Shown: positions 1 to 64,000, counted from the stretch's first letter. The stretch: DNA of 64,000 nucleotides from Bacillales bacterium UBA4682 (GCA_002404995.1 DHKY01000006.1:144520-208519), one strand, 5' to 3'. Notes: generated by a model not told the origin, from the sequence alone. A program made the numbers and translations.

Positions 1-1
1 A

Positions 2-1357
2 TACGAGTACGATGCAATAGGCCGGATAAAGGACAGTCGTGGCAGAGAAGAAGAACATTACGAATATGATAATGCCGGGAACATTGTTTCAAGGACACAA
101 TTGGGGATTTCTCATTCCTACCAATATTCCAACAGTGATGACCAGAACCAGATGACCTCAGCTGACTCAAGTCCTGCCCTTTACGATGATTACGGAAACC
201 TCGTTTCCTATAAGAACATGTCACTGGAATGGGCTGACGGAAACATCTTAAAGAAATACTATGACGGGGAAAAGGAAGTTCTTCTCGGATACACCCCGGA
301 TGGCATACGAGTTTTGAAAAATACGGACAAAGAAGGACTCACCTTCTACGGATACTGCGAAGGCAAGCTGCTTGTCTCCTATTCCACTAGAAAAGGTCTA
401 TTACTCTACAGCTATGATGGAAACGGAAAACCGAAAGCTTTGTCCTATAACGGAAAACTCTATTTCTTCGTTCATGACCCACAAGGAAATATTGAAGGAC
501 TCGTTGATTCCCATGGAGCCCCTGCGGTCGAGTACTCCTATTCGACCTATGGAGTTCCAAAAATAAAAGCAGTTTATAACATGGAGCTTGCCGAAGCGAA
601 CCAGATTCTCTATAAGGATTATGTTTATGACTGGGATAGGGGCCTCTATTATCTAATGACGAGATATTACTCTCCAGAACTAATGCGCTTCATCTCCCGG
701 GATGACCTTATACGAATATCCGAAAACGGACTGAATGATCCCTGCTACAATCTTTACGCCTATGCACTGGACAATCCGTTGTCTTTTTCCGACAAGAGCG
801 GATGCCTCGCAGTAGAGGTAGCTGCAGCATCAATCTATGAGGTAATAGCAGGTATAGCATTAACTGTGCTTGCCATCTTCCTGTTAAAGGCGATTGTCTC
901 CTACTGCAAGGATAACTTCCCATCGGATGTACTCCTGACAGAACTTGTGGACAAGACAAAATGGGACCTATATAGAGTGATAAAGGAAGTCGGGGAAATT
1001 ATTATCTTCACTACAGCAGCAGTAACACTGTCTTCCTGGGCAAAATGGATTAGACGAAATCGAACAGCAGAAAATCATCACATCATAGCCCTAAAGGCAA
1101 TTAGAGCTTATCCAGCAAGAAACATCTGGTTAAACAAATGTTACAAAGAAATTGATGATAGTCCAAATGTAATTTCTTTGAATTATGAACTACACCGCCA
1201 CCTACACACAGGGAAGTACTACCGGGCGGTTAACATAGATATAATAAATGCCTATGCTTTCGGACTTTGGAACGACAACGCAGAGGAAATGGTTATAAAA
1301 GCATTATACATTATAAATATAGCTCTTGCTGATTTAAATAAGGAGGCGCCGTTCTAA
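2..1357 (+). CDS. RHS/YD-repeat polymorphic toxin, C-terminal portion (5' end outside window); RHS core end, two predicted TM helices, then an xHH-type HNH/EndoVII-fold nuclease-like tip
   Basis: The frame is open from base 2 (YEYDAIGRI and YEYDNAGNIV YD repeats lie upstream of the track's TTG at 101). Core-end motif GLYYLMTRYYSPELMRFISRDDL...YAYALDNPLSFSDKSG. Hydrophobic stretches AAASIYEVIAGIALTVLAIFLL and IIIFTTAAVTLSSW. Tip ENHHIIA...NVISLNYELHRHLHTGKYY resembles AHH/SHH-class His-Me finger toxins. Confidence 0.8.
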   Translation, partial: YEYDAIGRIKDSRGREEEHYEYDNAGNIVSRTQLGISHSYQYSNSDDQNQMTSADSSPALYDDYGNLVSYKNMSLEWADGNILKKYYDGEKEVLLGYTPDGIRVLKNTDKEGLTFYGYCEGKLLVSYSTRKGLLLYSYDGNGKPKALSYNGKLYFFVHDPQGNIEGLVDSHGAPAVEYSYSTYGVPKIKAVYNMELAEANQILYKDYVYDWDRGLYYLMTRYYSPELMRFISRDDLIRISENGLNDPCYNLYAYALDNPLSFSDKSGCLAVEVAAASIYEVIAGIALTVLAIFLLKAIVSYCKDNFPSDVLLTELVDKTKWDLYRVIKEVGEIIIFTTAAVTLSSWAKWIRRNRTAENHHIIALKAIRAYPARNIWLNKCYKEIDDSPNVISLNYELHRHLHTGKYYRAVNIDIINAYAFGLWNDNAEEMVIKALYIINIALADLNKEAPF

Positions 1358-1358
1358 C

Positions 1359-3129: not shown

Positions 3130-3163
3130 CTGGTTAAAATGGAAATAATGATTTGATTTAAAA

Positions 3164-4465: not shown

Positions 4466-4468
4466 TGA

Positions 4469-7177
4469 TTAGTCCGCTAGAATTTCGAGTAAGCCAGAGG
4501 AAATCCTCTTTCCAGAAACCTTATCAAAGAGAAGAATGCCTTTTCCTTTGGTATTAATCTCCAAAGTCTCGTTCCTACTATAGTCAGAATCACCGAAAAT
4601 AACAGAAGTCAGAAGATAGCCATCGACAGAAAGACGGATGGTCGTTTCCCTGCCGGAAGGCATGGCGGAATAGACTTTTCCTTCCATGCCTTTTCCTTGT
4701 TCAGCAATCGTGAAGAACTCAGGACGGATACCAATGACATAATCATCTTTTTCAATGACTTTCTCATCACGGCGTTCTTTATCACCATCCTCAGTTAACC
4801 TGTGATAGTTGAAGAGAGTATCTTTGTTTCCTTTTTCAACATAGGAACGAAGTTTCTTTAAACGAAGAAGTTCTTCTTCTTTCTTCTCTGCTTCCAAATC
4901 TCGTGTCTTGATTTCCTCTTCTAAGGAAATAGGTGCATTCGGATAGAAGACTGCATGCCGATTATTAAAGAAAGTCCTATATAAAGAACCATCTTCTCTC
5001 TCCTTGACCTTCGTTTCAATGAAGGTAATCGCTGGATTACCGACAAAGTCAGCAACAAAGAGATTATTCGGACGACGATAGACCGTCAATGGTGCATCAT
5101 ACTGCTGAAGAACACCATTGTTCAATAAGCAGATGTGGGTGGCAAGAGTCCTTGCTTCGAGCTGATCGTGGGTAACATAGACAAAGGTAGCTCCGGTATC
5201 CCGGTGCAAACGCTTAAGCTCAGAACGCCTTTCCAGACGAAGCTTTGCATCAAGGTTGGAAAGCGGTTCATCCCTGAAGAGAACCTTCGGTCCAGGAGCT
5301 AACGTACGTGCAATAGCAACACGCTGCTGCTGACCACCAGATAATTCATTCGGGAAACGATCCCTGAATTCTTCGACTTTAACAATACGGGCTGCATGGC
5401 GAAGCTTCAACTCGATTTCTTCTTTGTCCAAAGCACGGACTTTGGAAAGATGGCAGGCTTTTCCATTAATCTTGGAAATAGCAATATTCCTCTCGCCACG
5501 GGCAGAATTGATAAGGGAAGTGTATTTTTCCCTCTCAAGAGAGTAATCCTTCAGAGTCTTGTATTTTGGCTCTAAGGCAGCATAAGTCCTCTTAACAAGG
5601 GAAGCAGCAGCCTCGCGGATCCTATCATGAGCTTCTTTGTACTCTTTCTTATTCGGATGAGAGACCGATTCGACGACTTCTTCCAAGAATTCAACAAGAC
5701 CATTACGGATAGCTTCTTCTGTTCCAAGGCAAGCATCATCTGCTTTTTCATAGAAAGCTTTGATGGCATGGTTCTTCTTGGCTTCATCGATGTGATTGAC
5801 TAAGTCAAGGACATTGGCTTTGGCTTCCGGAACAACACGTTCTGCCTGATCAAGGAACCGTTTCCTAGCCGCTTTGTTTGCTTTATGATCAACCTTGTAA
5901 CTAGCCCCTTCCACGTATTCGAATGCTTTGACAATCTTATTCTGTTCTTCTTTCGGGAGATAAGAGATTTCCTTCTTCAGTGAAGAATAGAATTCATCAA
6001 GGGTTCCATGTCCGATAGCAGAGACAAGTTTATCGAAATAAGGTTCAATACCCTCGCTGATCTGCAAAGAATAGTTCCGCATAGTCTTATTGTTCGAAAC
6101 CATCTGGGCATTGATTTTCTTTTCATCATTGGTTGCATAAGCTACCATCCTCTGCTGAAGCAAAAGAATCGTCCTATGAACAGAGTCATCTCCAAGGAAG
6201 AAAAGAGAATCCTTGATTTCTTCAAAGAACGCATTAATCTTATCTTTTTCTTCTAGATAAGCAGGAATATTCTCTTCCCTGATCTGGATATCCTTCTTCA
6301 GAACTTCACGTTCGCTCAAAGGAAGAAGATTCCTAGCTTCCTTCCTCTTCTCGATATGATTCGCTAAATGTTGATTCTTCTCAGAAAGCTTCCTCTCAAC
6401 ACCAAAGAGACGATTTTCCTCTTTCAGAGTATCTCCTGCTTTTTCAAGTGCATAAGCCTGCTTGAGGAAGGAGTCTACATTTCCGTCACCTGCCCTAGCC
6501 TGGTTATAGCCTGGAATCTGAACAAGCTGACCATCATCTAAGACCTGAATATCTTTCTGCATCCAAGCTGCTTTCCTTTGATCCAAAGCAGCATTACATT
6601 CTGAGATTTTCAAAGCGACCTTATTCTCGACATCGCCATTTTCTAAATGAAGCTTAAAGACTTCTTTTGCAGTGTATTGACTGACTGTGAATTCATCAAT
6701 AATCTTGATGATAGCACGGCTATCAATGATACGGCCTTTCTTGTCTTTCGCATCATTGACAAGCTTAATGACTTTATTCGGATCTTCTAGAACACGAATG
6801 ATATCCTTCCGGGTCTTGTATTTGAAGTCACAGACGGGAAGCTTTTCTTTAACATTCTTTAGACCGAAAGTAATGTTCTGATAGACGGTCCTATTTGGCC
6901 AGAGAGCATAGTTCTGGAAAAGGAATCCGACATCCCGCTTATTCGCAGGAACATTGATACCAGCTTCGGAATCGAAGACAACCTTGTCACCGATTTTGAT
7001 TTGTCCGGAAGTCGGCGTTTCAAGACCCGCAATCCTACGGAGAATTGTAGTCTTTCCGCATCCGGAAGGACCTAAAAGAGTAATGAACGATTTATCTGGG
7101 ATATCTAAGCTGACATGGTCTGTTGCATAGAAATCTTTCCAGCGTTTGACAATATCCGTTAAAACAATACTTGGCAT
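4469..7177 (-). CDS. ABC transporter ATP-binding protein (MalK/PotA/FbpC type, with C-terminal regulatory domain) carrying an insertion of about 470 aa
   Basis: Walker A LLGPSGCGKTT, Q-loop FQNYALWP, signature LSGGQQQRVAIAR, Walker B VLF[M]DEPLSNLD and H-loop YVTHDQ. GGAGG lies upstream of the ATG. About 470 aa rich in K and E separate the Q-loop region from the signature motif. Confidence 0.9.
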   Translation of the reverse strand: MPSIVLTDIVKRWKDFYATDHVSLDIPDKSFITLLGPSGCGKTTILRRIAGLETPTSGQIKIGDKVVFDSEAGINVPANKRDVGFLFQNYALWPNRTVYQNITFGLKNVKEKLPVCDFKYKTRKDIIRVLEDPNKVIKLVNDAKDKKGRIIDSRAIIKIIDEFTVSQYTAKEVFKLHLENGDVENKVALKISECNAALDQRKAAWMQKDIQVLDDGQLVQIPGYNQARAGDGNVDSFLKQAYALEKAGDTLKEENRLFGVERKLSEKNQHLANHIEKRKEARNLLPLSEREVLKKDIQIREENIPAYLEEKDKINAFFEEIKDSLFFLGDDSVHRTILLLQQRMVAYATNDEKKINAQMVSNNKTMRNYSLQISEGIEPYFDKLVSAIGHGTLDEFYSSLKKEISYLPKEEQNKIVKAFEYVEGASYKVDHKANKAARKRFLDQAERVVPEAKANVLDLVNHIDEAKKNHAIKAFYEKADDACLGTEEAIRNGLVEFLEEVVESVSHPNKKEYKEAHDRIREAAASLVKRTYAALEPKYKTLKDYSLEREKYTSLINSARGERNIAISKINGKACHLSKVRALDKEEIELKLRHAARIVKVEEFRDRFPNELSGGQQQRVAIARTLAPGPKVLFRDEPLSNLDAKLRLERRSELKRLHRDTGATFVYVTHDQLEARTLATHICLLNNGVLQQYDAPLTVYRRPNNLFVADFVGNPAITFIETKVKEREDGSLYRTFFNNRHAVFYPNAPISLEEEIKTRDLEAEKKEEELLRLKKLRSYVEKGNKDTLFNYHRLTEDGDKERRDEKVIEKDDYVIGIRPEFFTIAEQGKGMEGKVYSAMPSGRETTIRLSVDGYLLTSVIFGDSDYSRNETLEINTKGKGILLFDKVSGKRISSGLLEILAD

Positions 7178-11075: not shown

Positions 11076-11291
11076 ATGTCAATAACTGCTACAGAATTGA
11101 AAAGCAATCTAGGAAAATATCTTTCACTCGCAGAAACAATTGATATTTTCATCACACGCAATGGTAAAGTAGTTGCCAAGCTCACAAATCCAAATCAAAA
11201 TCGAGTAAAAATGGCTGAATCTCTATTTGGTATCCTTTCAGATGATAGGACCTTGGAAGAATCTAAAAAAGAAAGACTCAGTAAAATATGA
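11076..11291 (+). CDS. type II antitoxin, Phd/YefM family
   Basis: 71 aa. MSITATELKSNLGKYL...ITRNGKVVAKL is typical of the Phd/YefM N-terminus. Its stop overlaps the PIN gene start (ATGA). Confidence 0.8.
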   Translation: MSITATELKSNLGKYLSLAETIDIFITRNGKVVAKLTNPNQNRVKMAESLFGILSDDRTLEESKKERLSKI

Positions 11292-11719
11292 AGGCTATTA
11301 TCGATACCTGCGTTATCGTGGATGCCCTTCAAAAACGGGAACCGTTTTTTTCTGACGCAAAATCAATATTCCTTCTTTGTGCCAATTTAAAATTTGATGG
11401 TTTTCTTAGTGCAAAGGCCATTACGGATATTTATTTTCTTACCCATCGCCAAACGCATAGTGATACAGAAACAAGAAAAATCCTAAGAACATTATGCAAT
11501 CTATTCAACTTATTGGATACAACAGGTCTTGATATTCAAAAGGCGATATCGTCTGAAATTCCAGACTTTGAAGATGGTGTCAGGATAGAAACAGCCATAC
11601 GCTCTAAATTAGATTGCATTGTGACCCGTAATACATCCGATTACAAAAATTCAGCAATTCCCGTCTATACGCCGAAAGAGTTTCTTCAAATAATAACAAA
11701 TGAATGTAAAATCAATTAG
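11288..11719 (+). CDS. PIN-domain (VapC-like) toxin
   Basis: 143 aa. IIDTCVIVDAL at the N-terminus (first acidic residue), internal D/E residues, and CIVTRNTSDY at the C-terminus. 4-nt overlap with the antitoxin. Confidence 0.8.
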   Translation: MKAIIDTCVIVDALQKREPFFSDAKSIFLLCANLKFDGFLSAKAITDIYFLTHRQTHSDTETRKILRTLCNLFNLLDTTGLDIQKAISSEIPDFEDGVRIETAIRSKLDCIVTRNTSDYKNSAIPVYTPKEFLQIITNECKIN

Positions 11720-12201: not shown

Positions 12202-13179
12202 TTAGTCGACGAAACGAGAATAGACTTCGGAGATAGAGCTGTTGTGGGAGATAGACTGAATGACGTCAGCAAGCCTGGTATCAAGTGAAACAACCTGAAT
12301 CTTGATATCTTTGCTGTTCTTGAATTTCTCAGTAAGCGGGATAGAGTCCGTTACATAGATTTTTTCAAAGACTTTCTCAGTAGTCAGACGTTCATAAGCA
12401 GGATCAGAAAAGACCGCATGGGCAGCCGCCATCCTGATTCTCTTTGCGCCATGGCTCTTAAGAGCTTTGGCAGCAGCAATAGCAGATCCGGCAGTATCAA
12501 TCCTATCATCGATGATAACACAATCCTTGCCATCGACATCGCCGATGATGTTCCTGACTTCCGGCTGATATTTGTTGTTACGACGTTTATCGATAATAGC
12601 AATCGGAGTATCGAGCTTATCGGCAATCTGACGGGCACGGGTGACTCCGCCATGATCCGGAGAAACAGCGACTAAATTCTTCCGGTCAATCTCAGGATCA
12701 TTATATAAAACGTGTCCTAAGAGCGGAATAGCAGACCTATCATCCTCAAGGCAGGAGAAGAATCCCTGAAGCTGAGGAGCATGAAGATTGACGGTGATGA
12801 CACGGTTTGCGCCTGCTGTAACAAGCCTGTCGGCAACCAATTTCGAAGAAATTGGTTCACGCGGCTTGGATTTACGATCCTGGCGTGCATAACCGAAGTA
12901 AGGGATGATGACATTGATTTCGCCAGCCGATGCACGGCGCAGAGAATCAATGAAAATCAGGACTTCCCTAAGATTGTCGTTAACCGGCGGACAGGTTGAC
13001 TGGATGATGAAAACCTGTTTTCCACGGACGGTTTCTTCCGGACAGCATAAGACTTCACCAGATGGGAAATGGGCAAGATGGACGGGGGAAAGTTCAGTAG
13101 AAAGAAGGTGGGCGACGGAATTGGCCAACTCGACATTAGCGGAGAGAGCGAAGATGACTGCATTACTATCAAGCTTCAT
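12202..13179 (-). CDS. prs: ribose-phosphate pyrophosphokinase
   Basis: Motifs NDNL[M]E, PYFGYARQDRK, VSPDHGGVTRAR, IIDKRR, EV[M]NIIGDV and DD[M]IDTAG. I prefer the ATG at 13179 (GGAGG 5 nt upstream) over the track's TTG at 13191. Confidence 0.95.
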   Translation of the reverse strand: MKLDSNAVIFALSANVELANSVAHLLSTELSPVHLAHFPSGEVLCCPEETVRGKQVFIIQSTCPPVNDNLREVLIFIDSLRRASAGEINVIIPYFGYARQDRKSKPREPISSKLVADRLVTAGANRVITVNLHAPQLQGFFSCLEDDRSAIPLLGHVLYNDPEIDRKNLVAVSPDHGGVTRARQIADKLDTPIAIIDKRRNNKYQPEVRNIIGDVDGKDCVIIDDRIDTAGSAIAAAKALKSHGAKRIRMAAAHAVFSDPAYERLTTEKVFEKIYVTDSIPLTEKFKNSKDIKIQVVSLDTRLADVIQSISHNSSISEVYSRFVD

Positions 13180-16915: not shown

Positions 16916-18277
16916 ATGTACGAAACCCAGAAAGACCATCAGGTCAGTGAACTCTATTCTCAGCTCTTAGAAAAAATCAGACCTAACGTTGATCCCAAGC
17001 TCTTCGATGTCATGTTCCCGAATGCCGTTGAACTGAAATCCATCTCTGGAAACAAAGCACTCTTTGTCTGCCAGAGTTCCACAAACTGCATCATCTTCAA
17101 GAACACAAGGCTTTCCCTTGTCCAATCCGCATTAAAAGAACTAAGGGAGACCCCGATTGAAGTCGAAGTCATTGACGAAAAGAACTACCTCAGGCGGAGC
17201 CATGCTTTAGAGCAGGCCGATGAGACTTTCTTCAAGAACAGCCGTCTGGAACCTCAATATACTTTTGAGAACTTTATCGTCGGAGATTCCAACCGGGATG
17301 CTTATAGGGCCGCTTTATCTGCCGCCTCGAAGCCTTGCATGGCTAACCCGATTTTCTTCTATTCCCGCTCTGGACTTGGAAAAACGCATCTTCTGCAGGC
17401 GATTGGAAACGATTTTCTCTCCAAGCATCCAGATCGCAAGGTTCTCTACATCACTGCTGATGCCTTTGTTGACGAATACGTCAATTTCGTTCTTGGCAAA
17501 GGAAGCAAGAACAGGAAGGACTTCTTCACGACCGTCGATAGGCTGCTTGTTGATGACATCCAGTCCCTCGCCAACAAAGAGAAGACCCAAGACAGGTTCT
17601 TCAACATCTTTAACTTCCTTGTTTCCCATCAGAGACAGATTGTTCTGACCTCGGACCGGGCACCAAGTGAATTAAAAGGACTTCCGGACCGCTTGGTTTC
17701 CCGCTTTTCTTCTGGACTCTCCGTTTCTATCCGTCCACCGGAAAAGAATACCCTGATTGGAATCCTTCAAAGGAAAATCCGAATCAGCAATAGGACAATC
17801 GAAGACTTCGAGCCCGAAGTCCTTGATTACCTTTCTTCCAATTACTCCAAAAACGTCCGTGAATTGGAGGGTGCCTTCACAAACCTCCTATTCGCTATTG
17901 CCATCCATAAGCCGCAAGGAAAAATTTCCCTTGATTTCGTCCGTCATGTCTTTGAAAACGACGAAAAAAGAAAGACAAGCAAGGGAAAGATCGATGTCGA
18001 TCTCATTATCAAGGAAGTCGCTGACTACTATTCCAGGACAGAAACCCAGCTGAAGAGCAAGGTCCGTACCTCCCAGATTGCACTTGCCAGACAGATTGCC
18101 AGGTACTTAAGCCGGAAAAGGAGGAATATCTCCTACCAGGAAATCGGAAAAGCCTTTGGAAAAGACCATACGACAGTCAGGAACAATGTCCAGAAAATCC
18201 AGAAGAACTATGACAGCGACCAGGCTCTGAAGCACGCTGTCGATGAGCTGATAAGCAAACTGAAGGCTATCAATTAA
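16916..18277 (+). CDS. dnaA: chromosomal replication initiator protein DnaA
   Basis: Motifs NPIFFYSRSGLGKTHLLQAIGN, LLVDDIQ, VLTSDR and R(AGA)QIA[M]YL...DHTTV. AAGGAG RBS. Confidence 0.97.
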   Translation: MYETQKDHQVSELYSQLLEKIRPNVDPKLFDVMFPNAVELKSISGNKALFVCQSSTNCIIFKNTRLSLVQSALKELRETPIEVEVIDEKNYLRRSHALEQADETFFKNSRLEPQYTFENFIVGDSNRDAYRAALSAASKPCMANPIFFYSRSGLGKTHLLQAIGNDFLSKHPDRKVLYITADAFVDEYVNFVLGKGSKNRKDFFTTVDRLLVDDIQSLANKEKTQDRFFNIFNFLVSHQRQIVLTSDRAPSELKGLPDRLVSRFSSGLSVSIRPPEKNTLIGILQRKIRISNRTIEDFEPEVLDYLSSNYSKNVRELEGAFTNLLFAIAIHKPQGKISLDFVRHVFENDEKRKTSKGKIDVDLIIKEVADYYSRTETQLKSKVRTSQIALARQIARYLSRKRRNISYQEIGKAFGKDHTTVRNNVQKIQKNYDSDQALKHAVDELISKLKAIN

Positions 18278-26161: not shown

Positions 26162-27355
26162 ATGGATATTGTCGAACGCTTTAAATCCTACGTCGAAGTC
26201 GATACGAAAGCAGGAGAACCGAAAGAAGACAGTGCTTCGGATCCTAAAATCCTGAACTTATCCGAAAAGCTCTTAGAGGAACTACAGAAACTGAATCCGG
26301 ATGAGATTTCCGTCAACCGCTTTGGCATCGTCGATGCAAAGTTCAAAGGAATTGGAGACAAGCCTAGGATTGCTCTTCTTGCCCACAGGGACACATCACC
26401 GCAAGCTAGCGATACGAATGTCAAAACCAAAATCGATGTCTATGAAGGCAAGGATATTGTCTTAGGCGATGGAAAGGTCCTGTCCGAAAAGGAATTCCCG
26501 CTCTTAGCCCGTTCCCTTCATCATTCCATCATCCATAGCGATGGAACGACCTTATTAGGAGGAGACGATAAAGCCGGTATTGCGATTATCAGGGATAGCT
26601 TAACGGATATTATTGAGAACAAGATTCCGCATCGTCCGCTTGAAATCATCTTTACTACCGATGAGGAAATCGGTGTCGATGCCGAACATGTCTCAAGGGA
26701 AATCGTTCAAGCAAAGTATGGCTATACCATTGATGGCGGAGACAACAGCGCCGTCAATATCGAGACCTTCACGGCAAAAAGCAGGAAAGTCCATATCAAT
26801 GGAAAGTCCATTCATCCAGGTGAAGCGAAAGACAAGCTTGTCTCGGCTGTCAATGTCGCCATTGACTTCCAGAACGCTCTTCCGAAGTATCTTCGTCCGG
26901 AACATACGGAAAACAAGGAGCCTTTCTATCATCTCTGCTCTTTGACCGGGAATGAAGAACATGCCGAGATGGATTACATCATCCGTTCCTTCAACGAACA
27001 GGAAATCAAGAGTCTTGCTGATCTAGCCTTATTCACAGCAAAGAGAAGGAATGAGCTCTTCAAAGAGGAAATCATCCAGGTTGAGATTGCTGATCAATAT
27101 CACAACAGGAAGACAGTCTTAGATAAGTATCCGGAAATCGTCAAAGAAAGGAAGGATGCCTATCAGAAGCTGAACAGGCCTGCTATTGAAGTTGCCGTCC
27201 GTGGCGGAACCACAGGAAGCCAGCTCTCCTTCAAGGGGCTGCCTTGTCCGAATCTTGGAACCGGTGATTATAACAGGCATGGTCCTTATGAATATGTCGA
27301 CATCGACCAGAGGAAGCAGAGGTCTCTGGTTGTTAAGGAACTAAGGAAAGCCTAG
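26162..27355 (+). CDS. pepT: peptidase T (M20B tripeptide aminopeptidase)
   Basis: Motifs F.SYV.VDT, LLAH[M]DTSP, GGDDKAGIAII[M], TTDEEIG and GGTTGSQLSFKGLPCPNLGTG. Confidence 0.93.
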   Translation: MDIVERFKSYVEVDTKAGEPKEDSASDPKILNLSEKLLEELQKLNPDEISVNRFGIVDAKFKGIGDKPRIALLAHRDTSPQASDTNVKTKIDVYEGKDIVLGDGKVLSEKEFPLLARSLHHSIIHSDGTTLLGGDDKAGIAIIRDSLTDIIENKIPHRPLEIIFTTDEEIGVDAEHVSREIVQAKYGYTIDGGDNSAVNIETFTAKSRKVHINGKSIHPGEAKDKLVSAVNVAIDFQNALPKYLRPEHTENKEPFYHLCSLTGNEEHAEMDYIIRSFNEQEIKSLADLALFTAKRRNELFKEEIIQVEIADQYHNRKTVLDKYPEIVKERKDAYQKLNRPAIEVAVRGGTTGSQLSFKGLPCPNLGTGDYNRHGPYEYVDIDQRKQRSLVVKELRKA

Positions 27356-38408: not shown

Positions 38409-40136
38409 ATGGAAAACGAAAAGAAACAGTCTCCGGTTATCCTTTCTGTTCAGGATCTCCGTGTGTCATTCAAGACGGATGAGGGATTAGTTCATGCTGT
38501 CCGCGGTGTTTCCTTTGATTTGCATCAGGGTGAAACTCTCTGTATTGTCGGTGAGTCCGGCTCTGGAAAGTCTGTTACTTCTAAGACGATTAGGGGTATT
38601 CTTCCGGCCTCTGCTATCATTGAAAACGGTAGTGTCAGGTTCGAAGGAGAAGATTTGACCAAGGTCGAGGAAAGCGAATTCCATCGTATCCGTGGCCATA
38701 AAATCGGAAGGATCTTCCAGGATCCTCTCTCTTCCCTGAATCCGATCAGGAAGGTTGGTAAGCAGATTACCGAAGCAAGGCTTGTTAATTCCAATCACAG
38801 GAAAGAACGGTTCGATAAGAGGATTTCCAAGGAAGAAGCCGCTTATAAGAACTGCAAGGTCAAGCGGAAGAGTAAGATCAGGGATGCCAAGAACAAAGTC
38901 CTGGCTTCGGATTCTTCTTTCAATGACAAGATTTCGACTCTGGAGAATGCTCTCCGGGATAAGAAGAACGAACTTTCTTCTTTGAAGAAAGAGGATGCAG
39001 CCTATGCCGATAAGCTTGCGGAGTACAATGCTTTGAAAGCGGAGACAGCGAAGCAGATTGCAGCTGTCAAGGCAGAGAAGAAAGAAGCTCACAAGCAATT
39101 GGCAGGTTTGGTTGCTGTTGCCAGAAAAGAAGCGAATGAAGCCTATAAAGCGGAATATCCGCAGTTAAAGGCAAATCTTGATCAGGCAAAGCAGAAGGCG
39201 AAAGCCGAGAACGCCCTTTATAAGCAGAAAGCGGATGAAGAGCATGCTAAGAACTTAGCTCCTCTTAATGAAGAGAAGAAGCAGTATCTCGAAAATGCGA
39301 AAAAAGACTTCAAGGAATGGCAGAAGAGGGATAAGAAGTCCCGTCCTTCTTTGAAGGAAAAACTTGCTTCCTACAAGGCTGGCTATGATGAGATTGTTAG
39401 CAAGATAGAAAAAGAGAACGAAGAATATAAGAAGAACTTCAAACTGACCCGGAAGGAAGCCAAGCAAATCGCCTTGAAGGTCAGGGCTGAAGTCGGTATT
39501 CCTCAGCCGGAAGTCCGTTTCAATCAGTATCCGTTTGAATTCTCTGGCGGCAGGCGTCAGCGTATCGTTATCGCAATCGCCCTTACTGCCAATCCGGAAA
39601 TCCTGATCTGCGATGAGCCGACAACGGCTCTGGATGTTACAATCCAGGCTCAGATTCTTGAACTGATCAACCGCCTGAAAGCCGAACGTCATAGGTCCAT
39701 CATCTTCATTAGCCACGACTTAGGCGTTGTTGCTAACAGGGCAGATCGTGTTGCCGTCAGGTATGCAGGTAAGATCGTCGAAGTCGGTACGGCTAACGAA
39801 ATCTTCTATGATCCTCGCCATCCATATACTTGGGCATTGTTATCCTCTATTCCGGATATTGATTCCCACGAGAAACTCGAAGCAATTCCTGGAACTCCGC
39901 CGTATCTTCTCAATCCTCCGAAAGGCGATGCCTTTGCTGCCCGTAACAAGTATGCAATGGCAATCGACTTTGTCCAGGAACCTCCCTACTTCAAGATCAG
40001 CGAAACCCATTATGCGTCGACCTGGCTCCTTGATAAACGCGCTCCCCATGTCGAGAAACCGAAGATTGTTTCTCAGCGTATCAAAGCCAGTTTACTTAAG
40101 GCAGGTGTGAAAAATGAATCAGAACTCGAAAAATAA
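38409..40136 (+). CDS. oppD: oligopeptide ABC ATP-binding protein with a coiled-coil insertion of about 215 aa
   Basis: Motifs GESGSGKS, IFQDPLSSLNP, FSGG[M]RQRIVIAIAL, LICDEPTTALD and the C-terminal oligopeptide-transporter domain HPYTWALLSSIP. Confidence 0.93.
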   Translation: MENEKKQSPVILSVQDLRVSFKTDEGLVHAVRGVSFDLHQGETLCIVGESGSGKSVTSKTIRGILPASAIIENGSVRFEGEDLTKVEESEFHRIRGHKIGRIFQDPLSSLNPIRKVGKQITEARLVNSNHRKERFDKRISKEEAAYKNCKVKRKSKIRDAKNKVLASDSSFNDKISTLENALRDKKNELSSLKKEDAAYADKLAEYNALKAETAKQIAAVKAEKKEAHKQLAGLVAVARKEANEAYKAEYPQLKANLDQAKQKAKAENALYKQKADEEHAKNLAPLNEEKKQYLENAKKDFKEWQKRDKKSRPSLKEKLASYKAGYDEIVSKIEKENEEYKKNFKLTRKEAKQIALKVRAEVGIPQPEVRFNQYPFEFSGGRRQRIVIAIALTANPEILICDEPTTALDVTIQAQILELINRLKAERHRSIIFISHDLGVVANRADRVAVRYAGKIVEVGTANEIFYDPRHPYTWALLSSIPDIDSHEKLEAIPGTPPYLLNPPKGDAFAARNKYAMAIDFVQEPPYFKISETHYASTWLLDKRAPHVEKPKIVSQRIKASLLKAGVKNESELEK

Positions 40137-41433
40137 TCCGATTCAGCAGTTTATCTCCTCGAATAAGGAAAAGAAGATTCATGGGGTTACCTATAAAGAG
40201 GAGCTTGTCGATCAGAATATTCTTGTTTCTGTCCGTCATCTGAAAAGGTTCTTCCCTAGGGGAGGCGGAAAGAAACTGAAGGCTGTCCATGATGTTTCCT
40301 TCGATATCAAGAAAGGCGAATGTTTCGGCTTAGTCGGTGAATCCGGATGCGGAAAGACCACAACGGGACGTTCCATCATCCGTCTTTATCAGCCAACGAG
40401 CGGATCTGTGTACTTCAAAGGCTATCGTGTTGCTGCTGGCGAACGATGGAACCAGAAAGAAATCAAATGGTCCAAAATCAAGGGTGATGCCAAGATCAAG
40501 GACATCCGCCAGAAGGAACAGAGCGAACTCTCCGAAAGGAACAACAACACCTTAGAAGAGCAGATTCAGTACAATGCTGTTAAGGACAACTACGAAAAAG
40601 AAGTCCAGAAGATCAAAGACCATGTTGCTGAGATCAAACGGGAACAGGTTAAGAAGATTAAGAGAATCCGTTACGATAACCGGCATGTCGATCCGAAACT
40701 GAGGAGTAAGAGGCAGAGGATCTTCCAGGATCCGATTGATTCCCTTGATCCTCGTAGGACGGTCGAAGACATCATCCAGGAAGGATTGAAGATCCAAGGC
40801 TATCGCAATCGTCAGGAAAACCATGAGAAAGCCGTCAAGGTCTTGGAGGAGGTCGGATTGATTCCGGACTACTGCTCCCGTTATCCAAATGAGTTCTCCG
40901 GCGGACAGCGTCAGCGTATCGGTATTGCCCGTGCTATCATCAGGAATCCGGAATTCAGGATCTGCGATGAACCGATCTCTGCATTGGATGTCTCTATCCG
41001 TGCCCAGATCATCAATCTTCTCAACGATCTGAAGGTGAACCATGGTCTTACCCTCAGGTTCATTGCTCATGACTTATCCGTCGTCAAGTACTTCTGCGAT
41101 CGTATCGCAGTCAGGTATTTCGGTGAGATGGTCGAGATGGCAAGCAGCGATGAACTCTTCGCTCATCCGCTCCATCCCTATACGCGAGCTCTTCTCTCTG
41201 CCATTCCTAAACCGGATCCGCTGAGTGAAAAGAAGCGGAAACGTATTGTCTATAATCCGGCGAAGGAACACGACTATCGTGAAGAAAAGCCGAAATTCGT
41301 TGAAATCGTTCCTGGACACTTCGTCTTAGCTTCTTCTTCGGAACTTGCTAAGTATAAGGAAAGGATTATCGAAGACGACAAGAAAAACGCAGAAAAAGAA
41401 GAACTGCGGAAGAAACAGGGAATCGAATACTAG
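40114..41433 (+). CDS. oppF: oligopeptide ABC ATP-binding protein with an insertion of about 90 aa
   Basis: Motifs GESGCGKTT, Q[M]IFQDPIDSLDP[M][M]TV, FSGGQRQRIGIARA, ICDEPISALD and HPYTRALLSAIP. Overlaps the oppD end by 23 nt. Confidence 0.93.
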   Translation: MNQNSKNNPIQQFISSNKEKKIHGVTYKEELVDQNILVSVRHLKRFFPRGGGKKLKAVHDVSFDIKKGECFGLVGESGCGKTTTGRSIIRLYQPTSGSVYFKGYRVAAGERWNQKEIKWSKIKGDAKIKDIRQKEQSELSERNNNTLEEQIQYNAVKDNYEKEVQKIKDHVAEIKREQVKKIKRIRYDNRHVDPKLRSKRQRIFQDPIDSLDPRRTVEDIIQEGLKIQGYRNRQENHEKAVKVLEEVGLIPDYCSRYPNEFSGGQRQRIGIARAIIRNPEFRICDEPISALDVSIRAQIINLLNDLKVNHGLTLRFIAHDLSVVKYFCDRIAVRYFGEMVEMASSDELFAHPLHPYTRALLSAIPKPDPLSEKKRKRIVYNPAKEHDYREEKPKFVEIVPGHFVLASSSELAKYKERIIEDDKKNAEKEELRKKQGIEY

Positions 41434-50002: not shown

Positions 50003-51613
50003 TTAATTTCCTTCTTTGGAATCAATCAAATCGGTAAGGAACTTCACTTCGTCTTCCTTCTTGAGACGGGGGAAGAGAGGGGAGGTTTCATTGAGAACGG
50101 TATTCCCAAGCTTTCCGATTTCATTTACGGAGGCAAGAGTGCGAAGCTCTTCAGGAACGTTTTCCTGATCTAAGGCAGACTTTGTCTTATTCGGCCTTGC
50201 AGGAGAAAGGAGAATTGAACCGATACGGATGATTTCTGCTGCGCAGTAGAGGGACTCGGCAAGAAGCTCTGTATTTCCCTTCTTAGCCTGAGACCAAGGA
50301 GCAATATCATCGAAATACTTATTACCGAGGGCAATCAATTCCATTGCTTTTGCAATACCACTAGTGATTTCAAGGTTTTCCCTGTAGATGTTGTACTGGT
50401 TAACCTTTTCTTTCACATCGGCATAAACCTTCTTTGTAAGGTCAGACTGTGGTTCTTTGTACTCCGGAATAACACCATTGAAGTATTTCTTGATCATTGA
50501 TAAGGCACGGTTGACCAAGTTACCATAGGTGTTGGCAAGATCCGCATTCCTACGATCAACGAATTGCAGAGGCGTGAACCTTCCGTCTTTTCCAAATTCG
50601 ATTTCACGGACCATGTAATAACGTAAGGCATCGACACCATAGCGTTCAATCAGCGGATACGGGCTCGGAGCATTGCCTAAGGATTTGGAAAGCTTGACTC
50701 CGGAACGGGTCAGAAGAAGACCATGGACAATGACTTTATCCGGTTCACGGAGGTTAAGTGCTTTAAGCAAAATCGGCCAGTAAATCGTGTGGAAACGGGT
50801 GATATCACGTCCAACCAAATGGACAATTTCGCAGTCATCTCCCCAGAAAGTGTTGAAAAGATGAGCATCTTCGGTCTTGTATCCTAAAGCAGAGATATAG
50901 TTGAGAAGTGCATCAATCCAGACATAGATGACGTGCTTCGGATCTTCTTTGGTCGGAATACCCCAGCTGAAGGAAGTACGGGTGATGCAAAGGTCTTCAA
51001 GTCCCGGCTTGATGAAGGTATTGACCCTTTCGTTGATTTTGTCCTGTGCACAGAAATCTGGATGGGTCTGGTAGAATTCAAGAAGCCATGGAACGAATTT
51101 CTTTACATTGAGGAAGTAGGCTTTTTCAGAGTCCCTGTGGACTGGACGATGGCAATCCGGGCAGAAGTGATTTCCTTTTTCATCGACGACAACCTGACTA
51201 TCAGACCAGAAGGTCTCATCTGGAGTGCAATACCAACCTTTGTATTCGCCAAGGTAGATATCCCCTTTTTCTAAGAGTTCTGTAAAGACTTTCTGAACAA
51301 GTTCAGTATGGTAGGAATCGGTTGTACGGACATACCAGTCATAGGAGATATCCAGTGCTTTCCAGACATCCTTGAAGGACTGGGCGATTTTATCTACGTA
51401 TGCTTTGGGTTCCAGTCCTGCAGCTTCTGCCTTTTGTTGGATTTTCTGTCCGTGCTCATCAGATCCTGTCCTGAAACGGACATTGTAGCCGGCTAAACGT
51501 TTGTAACGGGCAATGGTATCCGCGCAGACGCAGCAATAAGTGTGTCCGATATGAATGTTTCCGGAAGCGTAGTAGATCGGAGTTGTGATATAAAAGTTCG
51601 TTTTCTTTTCCAT
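50003..51613 (-). CDS. metG: methionyl-tRNA synthetase (short form, no C-terminal tRNA-binding appendix)
   Basis: HIGH-type motif YASGNIHIGH. Zinc knuckle CPDCHRP. KMSKS-type motif KLSKSLGN. Anticodon-domain motifs GNLVNR and APW. AGGAGG RBS. Confidence 0.95.
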   Translation of the reverse strand: MEKKTNFYITTPIYYASGNIHIGHTYCCVCADTIARYKRLAGYNVRFRTGSDEHGQKIQQKAEAAGLEPKAYVDKIAQSFKDVWKALDISYDWYVRTTDSYHTELVQKVFTELLEKGDIYLGEYKGWYCTPDETFWSDSQVVVDEKGNHFCPDCHRPVHRDSEKAYFLNVKKFVPWLLEFYQTHPDFCAQDKINERVNTFIKPGLEDLCITRTSFSWGIPTKEDPKHVIYVWIDALLNYISALGYKTEDAHLFNTFWGDDCEIVHLVGRDITRFHTIYWPILLKALNLREPDKVIVHGLLLTRSGVKLSKSLGNAPSPYPLIERYGVDALRYYMVREIEFGKDGRFTPLQFVDRRNADLANTYGNLVNRALSMIKKYFNGVIPEYKEPQSDLTKKVYADVKEKVNQYNIYRENLEITSGIAKAMELIALGNKYFDDIAPWSQAKKGNTELLAESLYCAAEIIRIGSILLSPARPNKTKSALDQENVPEELRTLASVNEIGKLGNTVLNETSPLFPRLKKEDEVKFLTDLIDSKEGN

Positions 51614-52258: not shown

Positions 52259-53866
52259 ATGGAAAAGTACATTTTCGTTACAGGCGGCGTCATTTCTGGA
52301 TTAGGAAAGGGAATCACTGCCGCAAGTCTTGGCCGTTTGCTCAAAGCCCGTGGCTATAAGGTTACCAGGCAGAAATTTGATCCGTATCTGAACGTTGACC
52401 CTGGAACAAGGTCTCCAATCCAGCATGGTGAGGTTTTCGTAACCGATGACGGCACTGAGACCGATCTTGATCTTGGACATTATGAACGTTTTATCGATGA
52501 AAAGCTCGATAAGCATTCCAATGTCACAACTGGCAAAATCTATGAAACCGTTCTTGCCAAGGAGCGTCATGGTGATTACGGAGGAGGCACTGTTCAAGTC
52601 ATTCCTCATGTCACGAATGAAATCAAATCCCGTTTCCATCGTAATTTCAAGACTGATGAAACTGGAATTACGATTGTTGAAATCGGTGGTACGATTGGCG
52701 ATATTGAATCCCAGCCTTTCTTTGAAGCCATCCGCCAGTTCCGTCATGAAATCGGCGGTGAGAATGTCTGCATCGTCATGGTTTCTCTGATTCCGTATCT
52801 CCATGCCAGCGATGAACTTAAGACAAAGCCGACTCAGATGGCGGTTAAGACACTTCAGTCTATGGGACTTCAGCCGGACATCATTGTCTGCCGTAGTGAA
52901 TATGAAATCCCGGACAATGTGATTGATAAGCTTTCCCTTTTCTGCAATGTTCCACCGTCTCATGTCCTTCCGAACCTCAATGTCGAGAGTGTTTATGAAC
53001 TTCCTCTTGTCTTAGAGAAAGAGCATCTTGCCCAAGCTGTCTGTGAGACTCTTCATATTCCTGCACCGGAGCCGAATCTTTCTGGATGGGAAGCAATGGT
53101 CGAGAAGGTCAAGTCTTCGAAAGAGAAAATTAAGATTACGATGGTCGGCAAATACAGGGCTCTTCATGATGCCTATATCTCCGTCAATGAGGCTTTAAAA
53201 GCTGCTGGCTGGTTCTATAACAAGAAAGTCGAAATCAATTGGGTTGAATCGGAAGAAGTCACACCAGAAACTGTGGAATCCATTCTTAAGGATTCTGATG
53301 GTCTTTTGGTTCCTGGCGGATTCGGCTCCCGCGGTATTCCTGGAAGGCTTGAAGCCATCAAGTATGCCCGTGAACATAAGATGCCGTTCTTAGGAATCTG
53401 CCTTGGAAGGCAGACTGCGATTATCGAGTTTGCACGGGATGTCTTGCATTTCAGTGATGCCAATTCGACGGAGTTCGATGCTTCGACCAGGCATCCGGTG
53501 ATTGCATTGAGGCCAGAACAGAATTCTGTTAAGAACTTAGGCGGAACGAGGCGTCTTGGTGCTTATCCGTGTCATCTTGATTCGAATTCTAAATCCTATC
53601 AGCTCTACGGAACTGAGAACATTTCCGAACGTCACCGTCATCGTTATGAAGTCAATAACGATTATCGTGAGGCCTTCAGGAGAGCTGGACTTGTTCCGGT
53701 TGGATTCTCTCCGGATCAGCATATTGTCGAAAGGATTGAAATCCCGTCTCATCCTTTCTTCGTTGCTACTCAGGCTCATCCGGAATTTAAATCTCGTCCG
53801 GACCATCCACATCCGCTCTTCAAGGGATTGATTGCTGCTGCAATCGAATACAAGAAGTCTAAATAA
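52259..53866 (+). CDS. pyrG: CTP synthase
   Basis: Motifs YIFVTGGVISGLGKGI, VT[M]QKFDPYLNVDPGT[M]SP.QHGEVFVTDDG, GFGSRG, LGICLG[M]Q and HRHRYEVN. Confidence 0.97.
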   Translation: MEKYIFVTGGVISGLGKGITAASLGRLLKARGYKVTRQKFDPYLNVDPGTRSPIQHGEVFVTDDGTETDLDLGHYERFIDEKLDKHSNVTTGKIYETVLAKERHGDYGGGTVQVIPHVTNEIKSRFHRNFKTDETGITIVEIGGTIGDIESQPFFEAIRQFRHEIGGENVCIVMVSLIPYLHASDELKTKPTQMAVKTLQSMGLQPDIIVCRSEYEIPDNVIDKLSLFCNVPPSHVLPNLNVESVYELPLVLEKEHLAQAVCETLHIPAPEPNLSGWEAMVEKVKSSKEKIKITMVGKYRALHDAYISVNEALKAAGWFYNKKVEINWVESEEVTPETVESILKDSDGLLVPGGFGSRGIPGRLEAIKYAREHKMPFLGICLGRQTAIIEFARDVLHFSDANSTEFDASTRHPVIALRPEQNSVKNLGGTRRLGAYPCHLDSNSKSYQLYGTENISERHRHRYEVNNDYREAFRRAGLVPVGFSPDQHIVERIEIPSHPFFVATQAHPEFKSRPDHPHPLFKGLIAAAIEYKKSK

Positions 53867-59525: not shown

Positions 59526-59601
59526 TGGTGGATCTTAAGGGACTCGAACCCTTGGCCCACTGATTAAGAGTCAGTTGCTCTACCGACTGAGCTAAAGATC
59601 C
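59526..59601 (-). tRNA. tRNA-Lys (anticodon CUU), CCA encoded
   Basis: Reverse complement GGATCTT-TA-GCTC-AGTCGGTA-GAGC-A-ACTGA-CTCTTAA-TCAGT-GGGCC-AAGGG-TTCGAGT-CCCTT-AAGATCC-A-CCA. It folds as a complete cloverleaf with a 7-bp acceptor stem. CTT lies at anticodon-loop positions 34-36. Confidence 0.93.
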
Positions 59602-60573: not shown

Positions 60574-63191
60574 TTTTCCTTCTTTTCAGGAACTGCTTTT
60601 TTCTCTTTGAAGTTGAAGTCGAAAGCGTACCTGAGAGCCTTGATCCAGGAAACGGATCCTGCTGCATAGATGCCTAGCCTTAACCACATCGTCTTGCTCC
60701 TGGTACGGAAGTCGATACCAATCAAAGAGACAGCCCTGTTCGTATCTCCGGTTGGGATAAACGGCAGGACGAAAACGGCAAAATTGAAGACGATAAAGAC
60801 AATAAAGAACCTCAATCCGCGATACCAGTGTTCCTTTAAGGGGACCATCGGAGAGAAGCAGTTGAAGGACATGGATAAGCCGACAACAGCCAGCGATAAC
60901 ACGTTGAATGTCGTAAACCTGAATTGGCTATTACTTGTCCTAACACCATTGGTATTCCATTCTAGTTCAAGGAAATTCCCAGAATAAGCGAGAATATAGT
61001 TAAGGCTAAGAACTACGACCCTTAAAATAGCTGCTGGTATAGCACGCTGGAGTGTGTTCCGTGTGAAGTGGCCGGTGATAACGCTTTCGTTCTTCTGAAG
61101 AGCTAAGAACAGGGAAGAGAGACCAATACAGACCGACTCGAGAATCAGCCTGTTCTTTGTCGTGAACGGATAATCAATGCCATGTCCGTTGTTGAGATAG
61201 GTGAATAAGACAATGATGGTGAAAATGATTGTGAACCTTGTCTTCCTTAAATACAAAGCACTGGAACGCTGGACGTTATTGACGGCACGGCGTCCTTCTC
61301 CGACAGCAGCTGGCCTAGAGGCAAAATTCGAATCCAGCAGAACCCTATGGGCAGCATTGCGGGCGGCAGACGATCCATTTGCCATAGCAACAGAACAATC
61401 TGCTGTTTTCCTAGCTAAGATGTCATTAACGCCATCGCCTGTCCTTCCGACAGTCTTGCCCTGCTTTTTAAGCGTTTGGATGATCAAGGCCTTCTGTTCT
61501 GGTGTCACACGCCCGAAGACAGTGTATTTATCCACAATTTGAGAAACTTCAATATCGGATAATCCTTCGAGGGAGACACATTTTTCAGCATTAGGAACTT
61601 TGCATTTTTTAGCAATTTCGCCAGCTGTCAGAGGATTATCACCAGAGATGATTTTGATGTCGACACCATTATCTGTAAACCACTTGATGGTTTCTGGTGC
61701 CTGTTCGCGAATATGATCTTCTAATGTAAAGACTGCAATCGGAGAGATTTTTCCTTTTACCCCGTCATCCCTGATCTGGCCATCGACTTTGCAGATCCTG
61801 ACGACACGATAGCCTTCCTGCTGTTTCTTTTCGATGTAGGATGTCCTCGTCTTATCTCGTCCTTTGTAGAGATATTCGGGAGCACCGAGAATGAAGACAC
61901 CAATATCCTTGAACTCAACAGCAGAATATTTGCGAGAAGAAGAGAACGGAAGCTTGTTGATACTTGTATAAGTGTTTTTTAATGGGAAACGCTGAGAAAG
62001 AGCAATAGAAGTTTGGTTGTTTTCCTGGAATGCACTTAAATAGGAACCGACAAGATCATCCCTGTTGTAGGTGCCGTCAATCAAAAGCCTTTCATCGACT
62101 TTCCTTGTACCATCGGTTAAGGTTCCTGTCTTATCAAGACAGAGCGTGTTGGCACGGGCGAGCCTTTCCACGGAATAGATGTCTTGGACCATCCTGTTCT
62201 TCTTGGAAAGATGGACAACGGAACTAGCTAAGGCAACGGAGACAAGGAGGTACCTTCCAGCTGGAATCCTTCCGACCATGCTTCCGGCAGTAGCGGAAAT
62301 CGTGTTTCCGACTAGGTTCCAGGCATCTAATCCTTGATGGGAATTATTTAAGAACTGTGTGATGAATGTCAGGATTCCAAGCGGAATGATGATTAGGGAA
62401 ATAACTTTAATAATAGAGTTCAAGGAGCGAAGAAGCTCGGATTTTGGCTTGTTCCTGATTTTTGCTTTGTTCTGTATGGAGGAGGCATAATTGTATTCAC
62501 CGACTAGGATGGCTTGTGCTTTGCAAGATCCGGAAACAACAAAGGAGCCGGCAAAAATTTTGTCTCCGATTCGTTTCTTGATTGGAAGAGATTCACCAGT
62601 CAGCAAAGATTCGTTGACTTCGATTTTGCCATCCCTGACGATAGAGTCGGTCGGAACTTGGTCTCCGTTCTTGATTTCATAAATGTCATCCAGAACGAGG
62701 TCGTTTACATTGATTCCGGATTCTTTTCCGGACCGAATGACTTTGACGTTTTCACTGGAAATCAGTTTAAGCTTTGCAATAGTTTTCTTTGCTTTCAGCT
62801 CTTGGATAATACCGATTAAAGTGTTGACGATGGCAATGACTAGGAAGGTAAGTTCCTGCCAATGGCCGACAACAATTAAAGCAATCGCAATAGCGACAAG
62901 AAGCCTGTTGAAAAAAGTAAAGACGTTCTCACGGATTATCTGCCAGACTGTCTTGGAATTGTCTTTGACGCTATTGACAAGATGATGTGGATCATTGATC
63001 CGCTTCAGCACTTGCTCGTTGGTCAGACCCCTGTTTAAATCAGGATTGTAACGTTCTACTTCCTGCGGAATCTGCTTTACATCCAGACCCGGTTTGACTT
63101 CGGCTGGATTCTGACTTAGCTCATCCGAAAGCGGATTGAGCCTATCGATTTCGGTTGTCTCTTCTTTTTTCTTTGGCTTTTTTACTAACAT
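60570..63191 (-). CDS. cation-translocating P-type ATPase (type II-like, ion unknown)
   Basis: Motifs [18 protein letters not shown], [M][10 protein letters not shown][M]K and VLLDSNF. Ten hydrophobic segments. Its start overlaps the tdk stop. Confidence 0.92.
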
Positions 63192-63784
63192 TCGAATTTA
63201 TCCTTTGGTTTTCCTGGCACCTGATGATGCTTCCGGCAACGTGCTTCATAGGATTCTTTTGCCCCGACCCTGATGACAGGATCGGTATAGTGAGCAGGAG
63301 ATCCGTTTACTAAACGCTGTGTCCGCGTTGCTGCACAGCCACAGACTGTGCAGGCTGCAGTCAGCTTCGTTACGATTTCTGCTTGTGCTAAGAGCTTTGG
63401 CATTGGACCAAAGGGCTCTCCACGGAAATCCATGTCTAATCCTGCAACGATGACACGCCTTCCCCTGTTTGCAAAGTGATTGCAGAGGTCTGCTACATCT
63501 TCTCCGAAAAATTGAACTTCATCGATGGCAACTACCTGTGTGTCTTTTGTGACGGTTTTTGCGATATCATCGACTGTTTTTACGGCGTAGGCTTCCCATT
63601 TTGCACCATTGTGTGATGCAATAGCTGTCTTATCGTAGCGGTTATCGATGGCAGGTTTGAATGCCCTTATTTTCTGATTCGCATAGGATAAAGTTTTTAC
63701 TCTTCGTATGAGCTCTTCGCTTTTCCCTGCAAACCTTGGTCCGCAGATAACTTCTATCCAGCCTTTTTGTAATTCTTGATACAT
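63185..63784 (-). CDS. tdk: thymidine kinase
   Basis: Motifs GP[M][21 protein letters not shown] and zinc-site CxxC...RCRKHH. The ATG at 63784 gives about 200 aa. The track's upstream extension is not homologous to Tdk. Confidence 0.93.
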
Positions 63785-64000
63785 GATGATGTGCCTCACA
63801 CAATTACTAAAGTATATCATAGAACTAATCTTTAAGTGCCAAATGAAAAAACTCAAGATGACTAGTGTTATGTTTAAATAATGTGTATTGGAAAATTATA
63901 GTCTGTATTGCAGGAATATGATTTTGAACAGATAAAAAAGTTAAAAATAAGTTGATAATCAAAATTCTAATAGCTATAATAACGATAAATAGGAGAATTA

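Follow-up and report, generated by a model that had tools for sequence, protein, structure and literature searches.

The question raised by this locus is whether AGG, a codon normally read as arginine, encodes methionine in the organism from which the locus comes and, if so, whether the change is one already described. The locus, called the window below, is the whole stretch of 64,000 nucleotides analysed from Bacillales bacterium UBA4682 (GCA_002404995.1, DHKY01000006.1:144520-208519), and it is also part of ENA contig ERZ808299 NODE_32 (213,606 bp; 144,551 is added to a window position to give the record position). An earlier note, made from the sequence alone, had proposed that AGG is read as Met throughout and had attributed the stretch to a clade found in the Codetta screen. 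Sense-codon reassignment in bacterial chromosomes is rare, and AGG to Met is among five cases first reported in 2021, detected in eight metagenome-assembled genomes of three species in GTDB genus UBA7642 (Shulgina & Eddy 2021, PMC8629427); the genus is now named Candidatus Enterosoma, and the change was re-detected by two 2026 studies. From the comparisons below, AGG almost certainly encodes Met in the window organism, and with high confidence, from codon usage and the names given to close relatives, the window is assigned to that clade (GTDB UBA7642, family CAG-288, order RFN20). The change itself is already known, and its presence here is a confirmation of the published reassignment with no extension of it; possibly new are only two substitutions in methionyl-tRNA synthetase (MetRS), Ala370 and Ala428, and a link to the mischarging of tRNA-Arg(CCU) by MetRS.

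Codon usage, starts, and stops

Codons were counted in a greedy set of 44 non-overlapping open reading frames (ORFs; 19,366 codons). AGG accounted for 466 codons (24.1 per 1000) and internal ATG for 139 (7.2 per 1000); AGG and ATG together give about 3.1% Met, a normal content, and ATG alone would be abnormally low. Among the Arg codons, CGT was preferred over AGA (13.5 versus 5.2 per 1000), followed by CGG (4.8), CGC (4.0), and CGA (2.1). The description of the genome as AT-rich did not hold, the G+C content of the window being 43.2%. Starts were ATG in 37 ORFs, TTG in 5, and GTG in 2, so that ATG is retained for initiation as well as for some internal Met, and all three stops end genes (TAA 25, TAG 14, TGA 5). 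With TGA ending 5 of the 44 ORFs and TGG columns being Trp (Trp fraction 0.48), genetic code 4 does not apply, as had been stated.

Decoding tests

Every test that was run favoured Met over Arg, and over a generic hydrophobic residue, at AGG. Homologue sets were collected for MetRS, PyrG, and DnaA (120 each), together with 150 diverse representatives of P-type ATPases; 80 MetRS loci of named Bacilli genomes among the matches listed and six E. coli K-12 regions were added as references. Suspected clade members were excluded independently of the AGG columns, on the joint evidence of high identity, a Met content of 0.4-1.1%, and an Arg content of 5-7.5%. The codon-to-profile-column tally that had been suggested as a check was run on the window proteins, and it gave Met-like AGG columns with Arg at AGA and CGN. 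The 188 AGG columns averaged 0.228 Met, 0.219 Leu, 0.098 Ile, 0.083 Val, and 0.029 Arg, against 0.260 Met, 0.254 Leu, 0.107 Ile, 0.089 Val, and 0.004 Arg for the 44 columns under ATG codons of the window. The Met fraction did not differ between AGG and ATG columns (p=0.43, Mann-Whitney, as for the following values), and at AGG it differed from that in Ile-codon columns (p=2e-15) and in Arg-codon columns (p=1e-21; R 0.552, M 0.014). Columns conserved at 80% or more with at least 10 references were, for AGG, Met in 17 cases, Leu in 4, Ala in 1, and Arg in none; at the same cut-off, AGA and CGN gave 55 Arg and 4 Lys, which, with the invariant Arg at DnaA residue 392, agrees with the view that these codons are unaffected. 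The mean fractions were R 0.31 and K 0.23 for AGA, R 0.65 for CGT, and R 0.51 for CGG (28 columns).

Decoding by BLOSUM62 gave M as the best residue for AGG (+1.33, with R at -1.38) and, over codons with at least 10 columns, recovered the standard code except for AGG and a marginal ATA (n=18). ATA was rejected as a second reassigned codon, its columns being aliphatic and without Met enrichment. Ten proteins, none of them a query in the homologue searches, were then re-scored against Pfam with AGG translated as R, L, or M, and the 21 domain matches common to the three translations scored 1456.7 bits (Arg), 1546.8 bits (Leu), and 1596.0 bits (Met). Met scored better than Arg in 18 matches, tied in 3, and was never lower, and GHMP_kinases_C and MFS_1_like were absent under the Arg translation and reported only with Met. 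The difference of 139 bits is what standard-code translation, with Arg for Met at about 2.4% of residues, costs over the ten proteins.

All nine codons cited by the earlier note were read from the window as AGG at the coordinates and on the strands of Table 1, and the control codon in DnaA was AGA. The claim that these sites are near-invariant Met in other organisms stood for most of them and was overstated for three of the nine, because references for the MalK-like protein have L/M/C/A, E. coli PepT has Val, and paralogous ABC proteins have Gln in the OppD signature column. At the Tdk site, solved thymidine kinases read GPMYSGKSEEL and GSMFSGKSEEL. Two AGG codons of the P-type ATPase fall in columns (308 and 583) that are 90% and 94% Met.

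Table 1. Coordinates of AGG codons, the AGA control, and MetRS features in the window
Feature	Position	Strand	Evidence
Chromosomal segment with in-frame AGG = Met (almost certainly)	1..64000		466 AGG codons over the 44 ORFs, making up 77% of the Met codons at internal positions
AGG in OppD ABC signature FSGG[AGG]RQR	39552..39554	+	Met in E. coli K-12 OppD
AGG in OppF Q[AGG]IFQDP	40717..40719	+	Met in E. coli K-12 OppF
AGG in Walker B region of 902-aa ABC protein (MalK-like)	5273..5275	-	References L/M/C/A: hydrophobic, not invariant Met
AGG in thymidine kinase (Tdk) P-loop GP[AGG]FAGKSEEL	63734..63736	-	Met in solved thymidine kinases 1xx6 and 2ja1
AGG at PyrG residue 37	52367..52369	+	Met in 118/120 homologues; Ile in E. 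coli
AGG at PyrG residue 51, DPGT[AGG]SP	52409..52411	+	Met in 115/120 homologues including E. coli
AGG at DnaA residue 396, RQIA[AGG]YL	18101..18103	+	Met in 114/116 homologues including E. coli
AGA control at DnaA residue 392, still Arg	18089..18091	+	Arg in 115/115 homologues
AGG in PepT LAH[AGG]DTSP	26387..26389	+	Val in E. coli PepT; Peptidase_M20 36.1 to 49.8 bits with Met
AGG in Prs EV[AGG]NIIGD	12553..12555	-	Met in 9/9 references including E. coli
AGG at P-type ATPase residue 308, MVG[AGG]IPAG	62268..62270	-	Met in 90% of 149 representatives
AGG at P-type ATPase residue 583, G[AGG]TGDGVND	61443..61445	-	Met in 94% of 150 representatives
MetRS gene, 536 aa, 7 own AGG codons	50003..51613	-	Pfam tRNA-synt_1g and Anticodon_3; homologues methionine--tRNA ligase
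MetRS anticodon-contact motif N365-L-V-N-R369 (E. coli N391, R395), unchanged	50507..50521	-	Asn and Arg without exception among 119 outgroup and 15 clade sequences
MetRS Ala370, clade-specific for Thr/Ser, directly after Arg369	50504..50506	-	Outgroup T 109, S 10 of 119; Ala in 15/15 clade sequences and L104
MetRS Ala428, aligned to E. coli Asp449 (mature numbering)	50330..50332	-	Outgroup mostly Asn/Asp; Ala in 15/15 clade sequences
MetRS Trp440 (E. coli W461), unchanged	50294..50296	-	Alignment

Codon comparison with relatives

In the standard-code sister locus L102, named Candidatus Enterosoma sp. and 81-82% identical in MetRS and PyrG, AGG occurs once in the 1415 aligned codons. The window's AGG codons correspond there to ATG at 13 of 24 sites, the remainder being mostly Leu, Ile, and Val codons, and the window's CGT codons to AGA, CGT, CGC, or CGA at 31 of 32 sites. 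Another locus, L016 (MetRS 72% identity), has AGG codons of its own that pair mostly with AGA and CGN of the window, and AGG is therefore Arg in L016. Within the clade, AGG was kept at 70 of 79 sites (L104) and 66 of 89 sites (L105), AGG and ATG exchanged in both directions (3+8 and 5+6, respectively), and AGG was paired with AGA once and with CGN never.

Two public contigs were set aside. L107 (ENA ERZ27280372 k141_1110155) was rejected as a clade MetRS, being a chimera that shows 100% identity over residues 1-210 to P0064, a standard-code MetRS unrelated to the clade, and 97-100% identity over the rest to L104. L106 (ENA ERZ28656356 scaffold_8774) was rejected as an extra clade lineage, being chimeric within DnaA: the window species is matched over residues 1-150 and a standard-code outgroup over residues 301-453, with AGG confined to the clade-derived part and ATG to the outgroup-derived part. 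In each contig the junction between a clade genome and a standard-code relative falls within a conserved gene (MetRS in L107, DnaA in L106). Hybrid proteins of this kind in public collections (P0021 and P0245) can mislead comparative analyses, and one did so in the present analysis.

Alternative readings of AGG

Some points weigh against a simple reading of AGG as Met. No tRNA(CCU) was found within the window, over about 8.6 kb upstream and 5 kb downstream of it, or in 12 related loci, and no protein-level evidence was found in the literature searched. Low-level insertion of Arg at AGG may occur through wobble by tRNA-Arg(UCU). With references below 70% identity only, a naive likelihood cannot split Met from Leu, and this is equally so for the window's ATG. 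The AGG columns at DnaA residue 93 (K/R) and PyrG residue 474 (R/V/K/I) are mostly basic, and both are variable.

The alternative that survives best is an ambiguous AGG, mostly Met with substantial Arg through wobble by tRNA-Arg(UCU) or residual charging by arginyl-tRNA synthetase, and it is considered improbable. AGA is still Arg, so that a tRNA-Arg(UCU) must exist, and the possibility was raised in the published discussion (PMC8629427); the R fraction is also slightly higher in AGG than in ATG columns, although not significantly (p=0.08). AGG stands, however, at invariant, buried, or catalytic-motif Met positions of many essential proteins, where frequent Arg would be costly, and at none of the strongly conserved Arg columns, and the depressed AGA and preferred CGT are consistent with selection against competition for the codon.

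That AGG encodes leucine or another aliphatic residue, and not specifically Met, is very unlikely. It draws on the near-equal shares of Leu (0.22) and Met (0.23) in AGG columns, and on a slight preference for Leu by the naive per-column likelihood and cross-entropy classifiers with references below 70% identity. The undisputed ATG codons, however, give the same mixture of Met and Leu and the same classifier ambiguity, ATG itself barely being called Met; both classifiers wavered between Met and Leu, since the Met profile rested on just 44 ATG columns, and the fraction tests, BLOSUM decoding, and Pfam re-scoring took their place. Compared with Leu-codon columns (L 0.506, M 0.056), AGG columns hold four times the Met (p=1e-12) and less than half the Leu (p=3e-15), the conserved AGG columns favour Met by 17 to 4, Pfam prefers Met by 49.2 bits (17 matches better, 3 tied, 1 worse), and the commonest counterpart in the closest standard-code sister is ATG. 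A standard code combined with an artefact (errors in sequencing or assembly, wrong reading frames, or extreme drift of the proteome from Met to Arg) has next to no likelihood, since the public clade contigs that are indeed chimeric (L106 and L107) themselves display the code boundary, at least five independent assemblies, two contigs of about 213 kb among them, carry identical proteins, the long, intact ORFs keep synteny with relatives, 1 of 61 codons deviates convincingly and to the same amino acid everywhere, and Arg at 17 invariant-Met columns of unrelated enzymes is not biologically credible.

Membership of the published clade

With AGG read as Met, the attribution to the clade of the Codetta screen was supported by codon usage at or just beyond the published ranges and by the names of close relatives. 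The published clade has, per 10,000 codons, 209-235 AGG and 59-69 AUG, with CGU as the preferred Arg codon and a G+C fraction of 0.42-0.46, and its source was primate faecal metagenomes (PMC8629427). For the window, a metagenome-assembled genome from run SRR1747018 has a contig name in the ERZ808... series, to which the window's assembly, ERZ808299, also belongs. The window has, per 10,000, CGT 135, CGC 40, CGA 21, CGG 47, AGA 52, AGG 241, and ATG 72, at a G+C fraction of 0.432; the slight excess is expected because the published counts cover Pfam-aligned codons only and those of the window cover all codons of the 44 ORFs. This usage is closer to that of sp002404995 or sp900549915 than to that of the CGG-rich sp002297045. 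Clusters at 90% identity or more to the window proteins carry the NCBI names "Candidatus Enterosoma sp." or "Mollicutes bacterium", and a standard-code PyrG homologue of 81% identity is also named Candidatus Enterosoma sp. A scan of a genome collection gave no clade genome among the matches listed. The window shares with the published case the codon, the amino acid, the unaffected AGA and CGN, the AGG:ATG ratio of about 3:1, the preference for CGU, a G+C fraction of about 0.42-0.46, the unchanged MetRS anticodon contacts, and relatives under these names, and no tested feature of the window differs.

In DnaA (gene 16916-18277), four lineages (the window with P0241, P0242, P0243, and P0244), at no more than 90% mutual identity, have "R" at both columns where the outgroup has Met. 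These lineages, at least four, suggest that the sampled diversity of the reassigned clade now exceeds the three species of 2021. Clade proteins are held in mistranslated form in public databases.

Methionyl-tRNA synthetase and the proposed decoding route

The MetRS encoded in the window matched the MetRS:tRNA complex 2CSX with E = 1e-121. Its anticodon-contact residues N365, R369, P439, and W440, whose E. coli equivalents are N391, R395, P460, and W461, are invariant in clade and outgroup. The anticodon contacts were also unchanged in the published clade, in a comparison that covered three contact residues only (PMC8629427). Ala370 and Ala428 are both fixed in the 15 clade sequences. Asp449 of E. 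coli, to which Ala428 aligns, is taken here to be a negative discriminant against non-cognate anticodons. The clade MetRS might have co-evolved with the new tRNA, Ala370 and Ala428 together making the enzyme less strict at anticodon position 35, which would let it take CCU as well as CAU; this is unlikely, and it is put forward as a hypothesis and not as a finding because the clade sequences span only 93-100% identity. If true, the two residues would be a new mechanistic piece beyond the published three-residue comparison.

An apparent concentration of all 13 clade MetRS substitutions (3 sequences, rare in 118 outgroups) in the anticodon-binding half was rejected as an artefact of the chimeric L107. 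With genuine MetRS sequences, a relative-rate test gave no acceleration (3 versus 4 changes in the N-domain, 4 versus 4 in the C-domain). Upstream of MetRS, no T-box or other riboswitch was found, with no Rfam family at the gathering threshold or at E <= 0.5.

The variant code almost certainly comprises AGG as Met, AGA and CGN as Arg, and ATG as start and minority Met codon. In the published clade, tRNA(CCU) has A73, G2:C71, and C3:G70, lacks A20, and adjoins tRNA-Arg(CCG) (PMC8629427), and a tRNA(CCU) with Met identity was reported in 9 clade genomes (PMC8629427; PMC13092985). The decoding step rests on this literature because tRNA(CCU) was not found in the window, its flanks, or the related loci. 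By that account, a tRNA with anticodon CCU would descend from tRNA-Arg(CCU), would have lost the Arg identity element A20 and gained the Met elements A73, G2:C71, and C3:G70, and would be charged by the MetRS encoded at 50003-51613. Such charging is plausible because anticodon position 35 is the least critical base for MetRS. Movement of Arg usage from AGA to CGT would lessen competition on AGG by wobble of tRNA-Arg(UCU).

Mischarging of tRNA-Arg(CCU) with Met by the E. coli enzyme has been observed in vitro (Jones, Alexander & Pan 2011, cited from PMC3488245 and PMC9976931), which by analogy suggests that MetRS was predisposed to accept CCU and that loss of the tRNA's Arg identity could have sufficed. 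Acceptance of CCU, a non-cognate anticodon one base from CAU, by a MetRS would be common to both cases and offers the reassignment a biochemical route; the E. coli mischarging differs in being low-level, in vitro, and in a standard-code organism, with no fixed code change. The connection between this mischarging and the reassignment is drawn here, and Shulgina & Eddy do not cite it. In line with the earlier note's statement that the decoding machinery is without experimental characterisation, the literature search returned computational follow-ups only, and the MetRS gene of the window is a concrete reagent for asking how a synthetase gains a second anticodon. The sole tRNA of the window and of the flanks covered is tRNA-Lys(CUU) (59526-59601, minus strand), whose location is conserved among related loci, that of the standard-code relative L016 among them.

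Relation to other code changes

An organelle case of AGG to Met (a 2019 study, as cited in PMC8629427) shares codon and amino acid with the window, but it concerns an organelle genome and has an independent origin, whereas the window is from the chromosome of a free-living (host-associated) bacterium. Other bacterial reassignments of Arg codons are CGG to Trp in RFN20 relatives and Anaerococcus, CGG to Gln in Peptacetobacter, and CGA/CGG to Trp in Absconditabacteria (PMC8629427). These also reassign Arg sense codons in bacteria, and one of them lies in order RFN20 too, but other codons and targets are involved and the codons stay rare, whereas AGG here rebounded to become the dominant Met codon, and CGG in the window behaves as Arg. 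Codes 4 (UGA to Trp, Mycoplasmatales) and 25 (UGA to Gly) are likewise alternative codes of bacteria in reduced, host-associated lineages, and some clade genomes are labelled Mollicutes by NCBI; unlike those codes, no stop codon is reassigned in the window.

Other genes of the window

The start of the window cuts the gene of an RHS/YD-shell toxin of 780 aa that faintly matches an AHH nuclease (window 1-1357, plus strand; upstream part at L008 7657-9999). The AGG:ATG ratio of this gene is 7:10 overall and 1:6 over the portion inside the window (p=8e-4 relative to the norm of 77%), and the low AGG might mark a toxin tip recently imported from a standard-code donor. The two small genes that follow (1359-2108 and 2227-2973) could encode immunity proteins. 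About 1.5-8.6 kb upstream of the window, L008 1-7124 holds genes for a phage-type integrase, an SNF2/ResIII helicase, and a DNA methylase, along with two unknown genes, and together they look like a mobile or defence island. The AGG:ATG ratios of these genes are mostly clade-like (e.g., 14:6 and 9:1), and by this measure the island appears adapted to the altered code. A 604-aa ABC permease (BPD_transp_1; 7180-8994, minus strand) is also below the window norm, with 10 AGG and 12 ATG codons (p=1e-3). By Pfam annotation of the source contig, a PhdYeFM-type antitoxin (11076-11291) and a PIN-domain toxin (11288-11719) form a pair on the plus strand.

OppD (38409-40136, 575 aa) and OppF (40114-41433, 439 aa), both on the plus strand, are far longer than their E. 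coli counterparts, and the OppA-like protein (1004 aa) and OppC (683 aa) are oversized too. In OppD, the 137-position ABC_tran profile covers residues 32-406, which implies a Lys/Glu/Ala-rich insertion of about 240 aa in the ATPase domain. Five large proteins of 410-1040 aa (23001-26123, 41650-43710, 44479-47400, and 55672-56976 on the plus strand; 9066-10298 on the minus strand) had no significant Pfam match under either translation, and no domain was recovered on re-translation with AGG as Met. One of these orphans (973 aa) has 40 AGG and 9 ATG codons, about 5% Met, and another (1040 aa) has a long Glu/Lys-rich, coiled-coil-like centre. Upstream of the oligopeptide transporter operon lies a 1381-aa subtilisin-like protein (27573-31718, plus strand) with Peptidase_S8 and PA domains, probably a cell-envelope protease. 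A 217-aa protein of the metallo-beta-lactamase fold (49264-49917, plus strand) matches Anti-Pycsar Apyc1 and Lactamase_B; it adjoins MetRS in clade and sister genomes alike, and for that reason a housekeeping role as a hydrolase is more probable than one in anti-defence.

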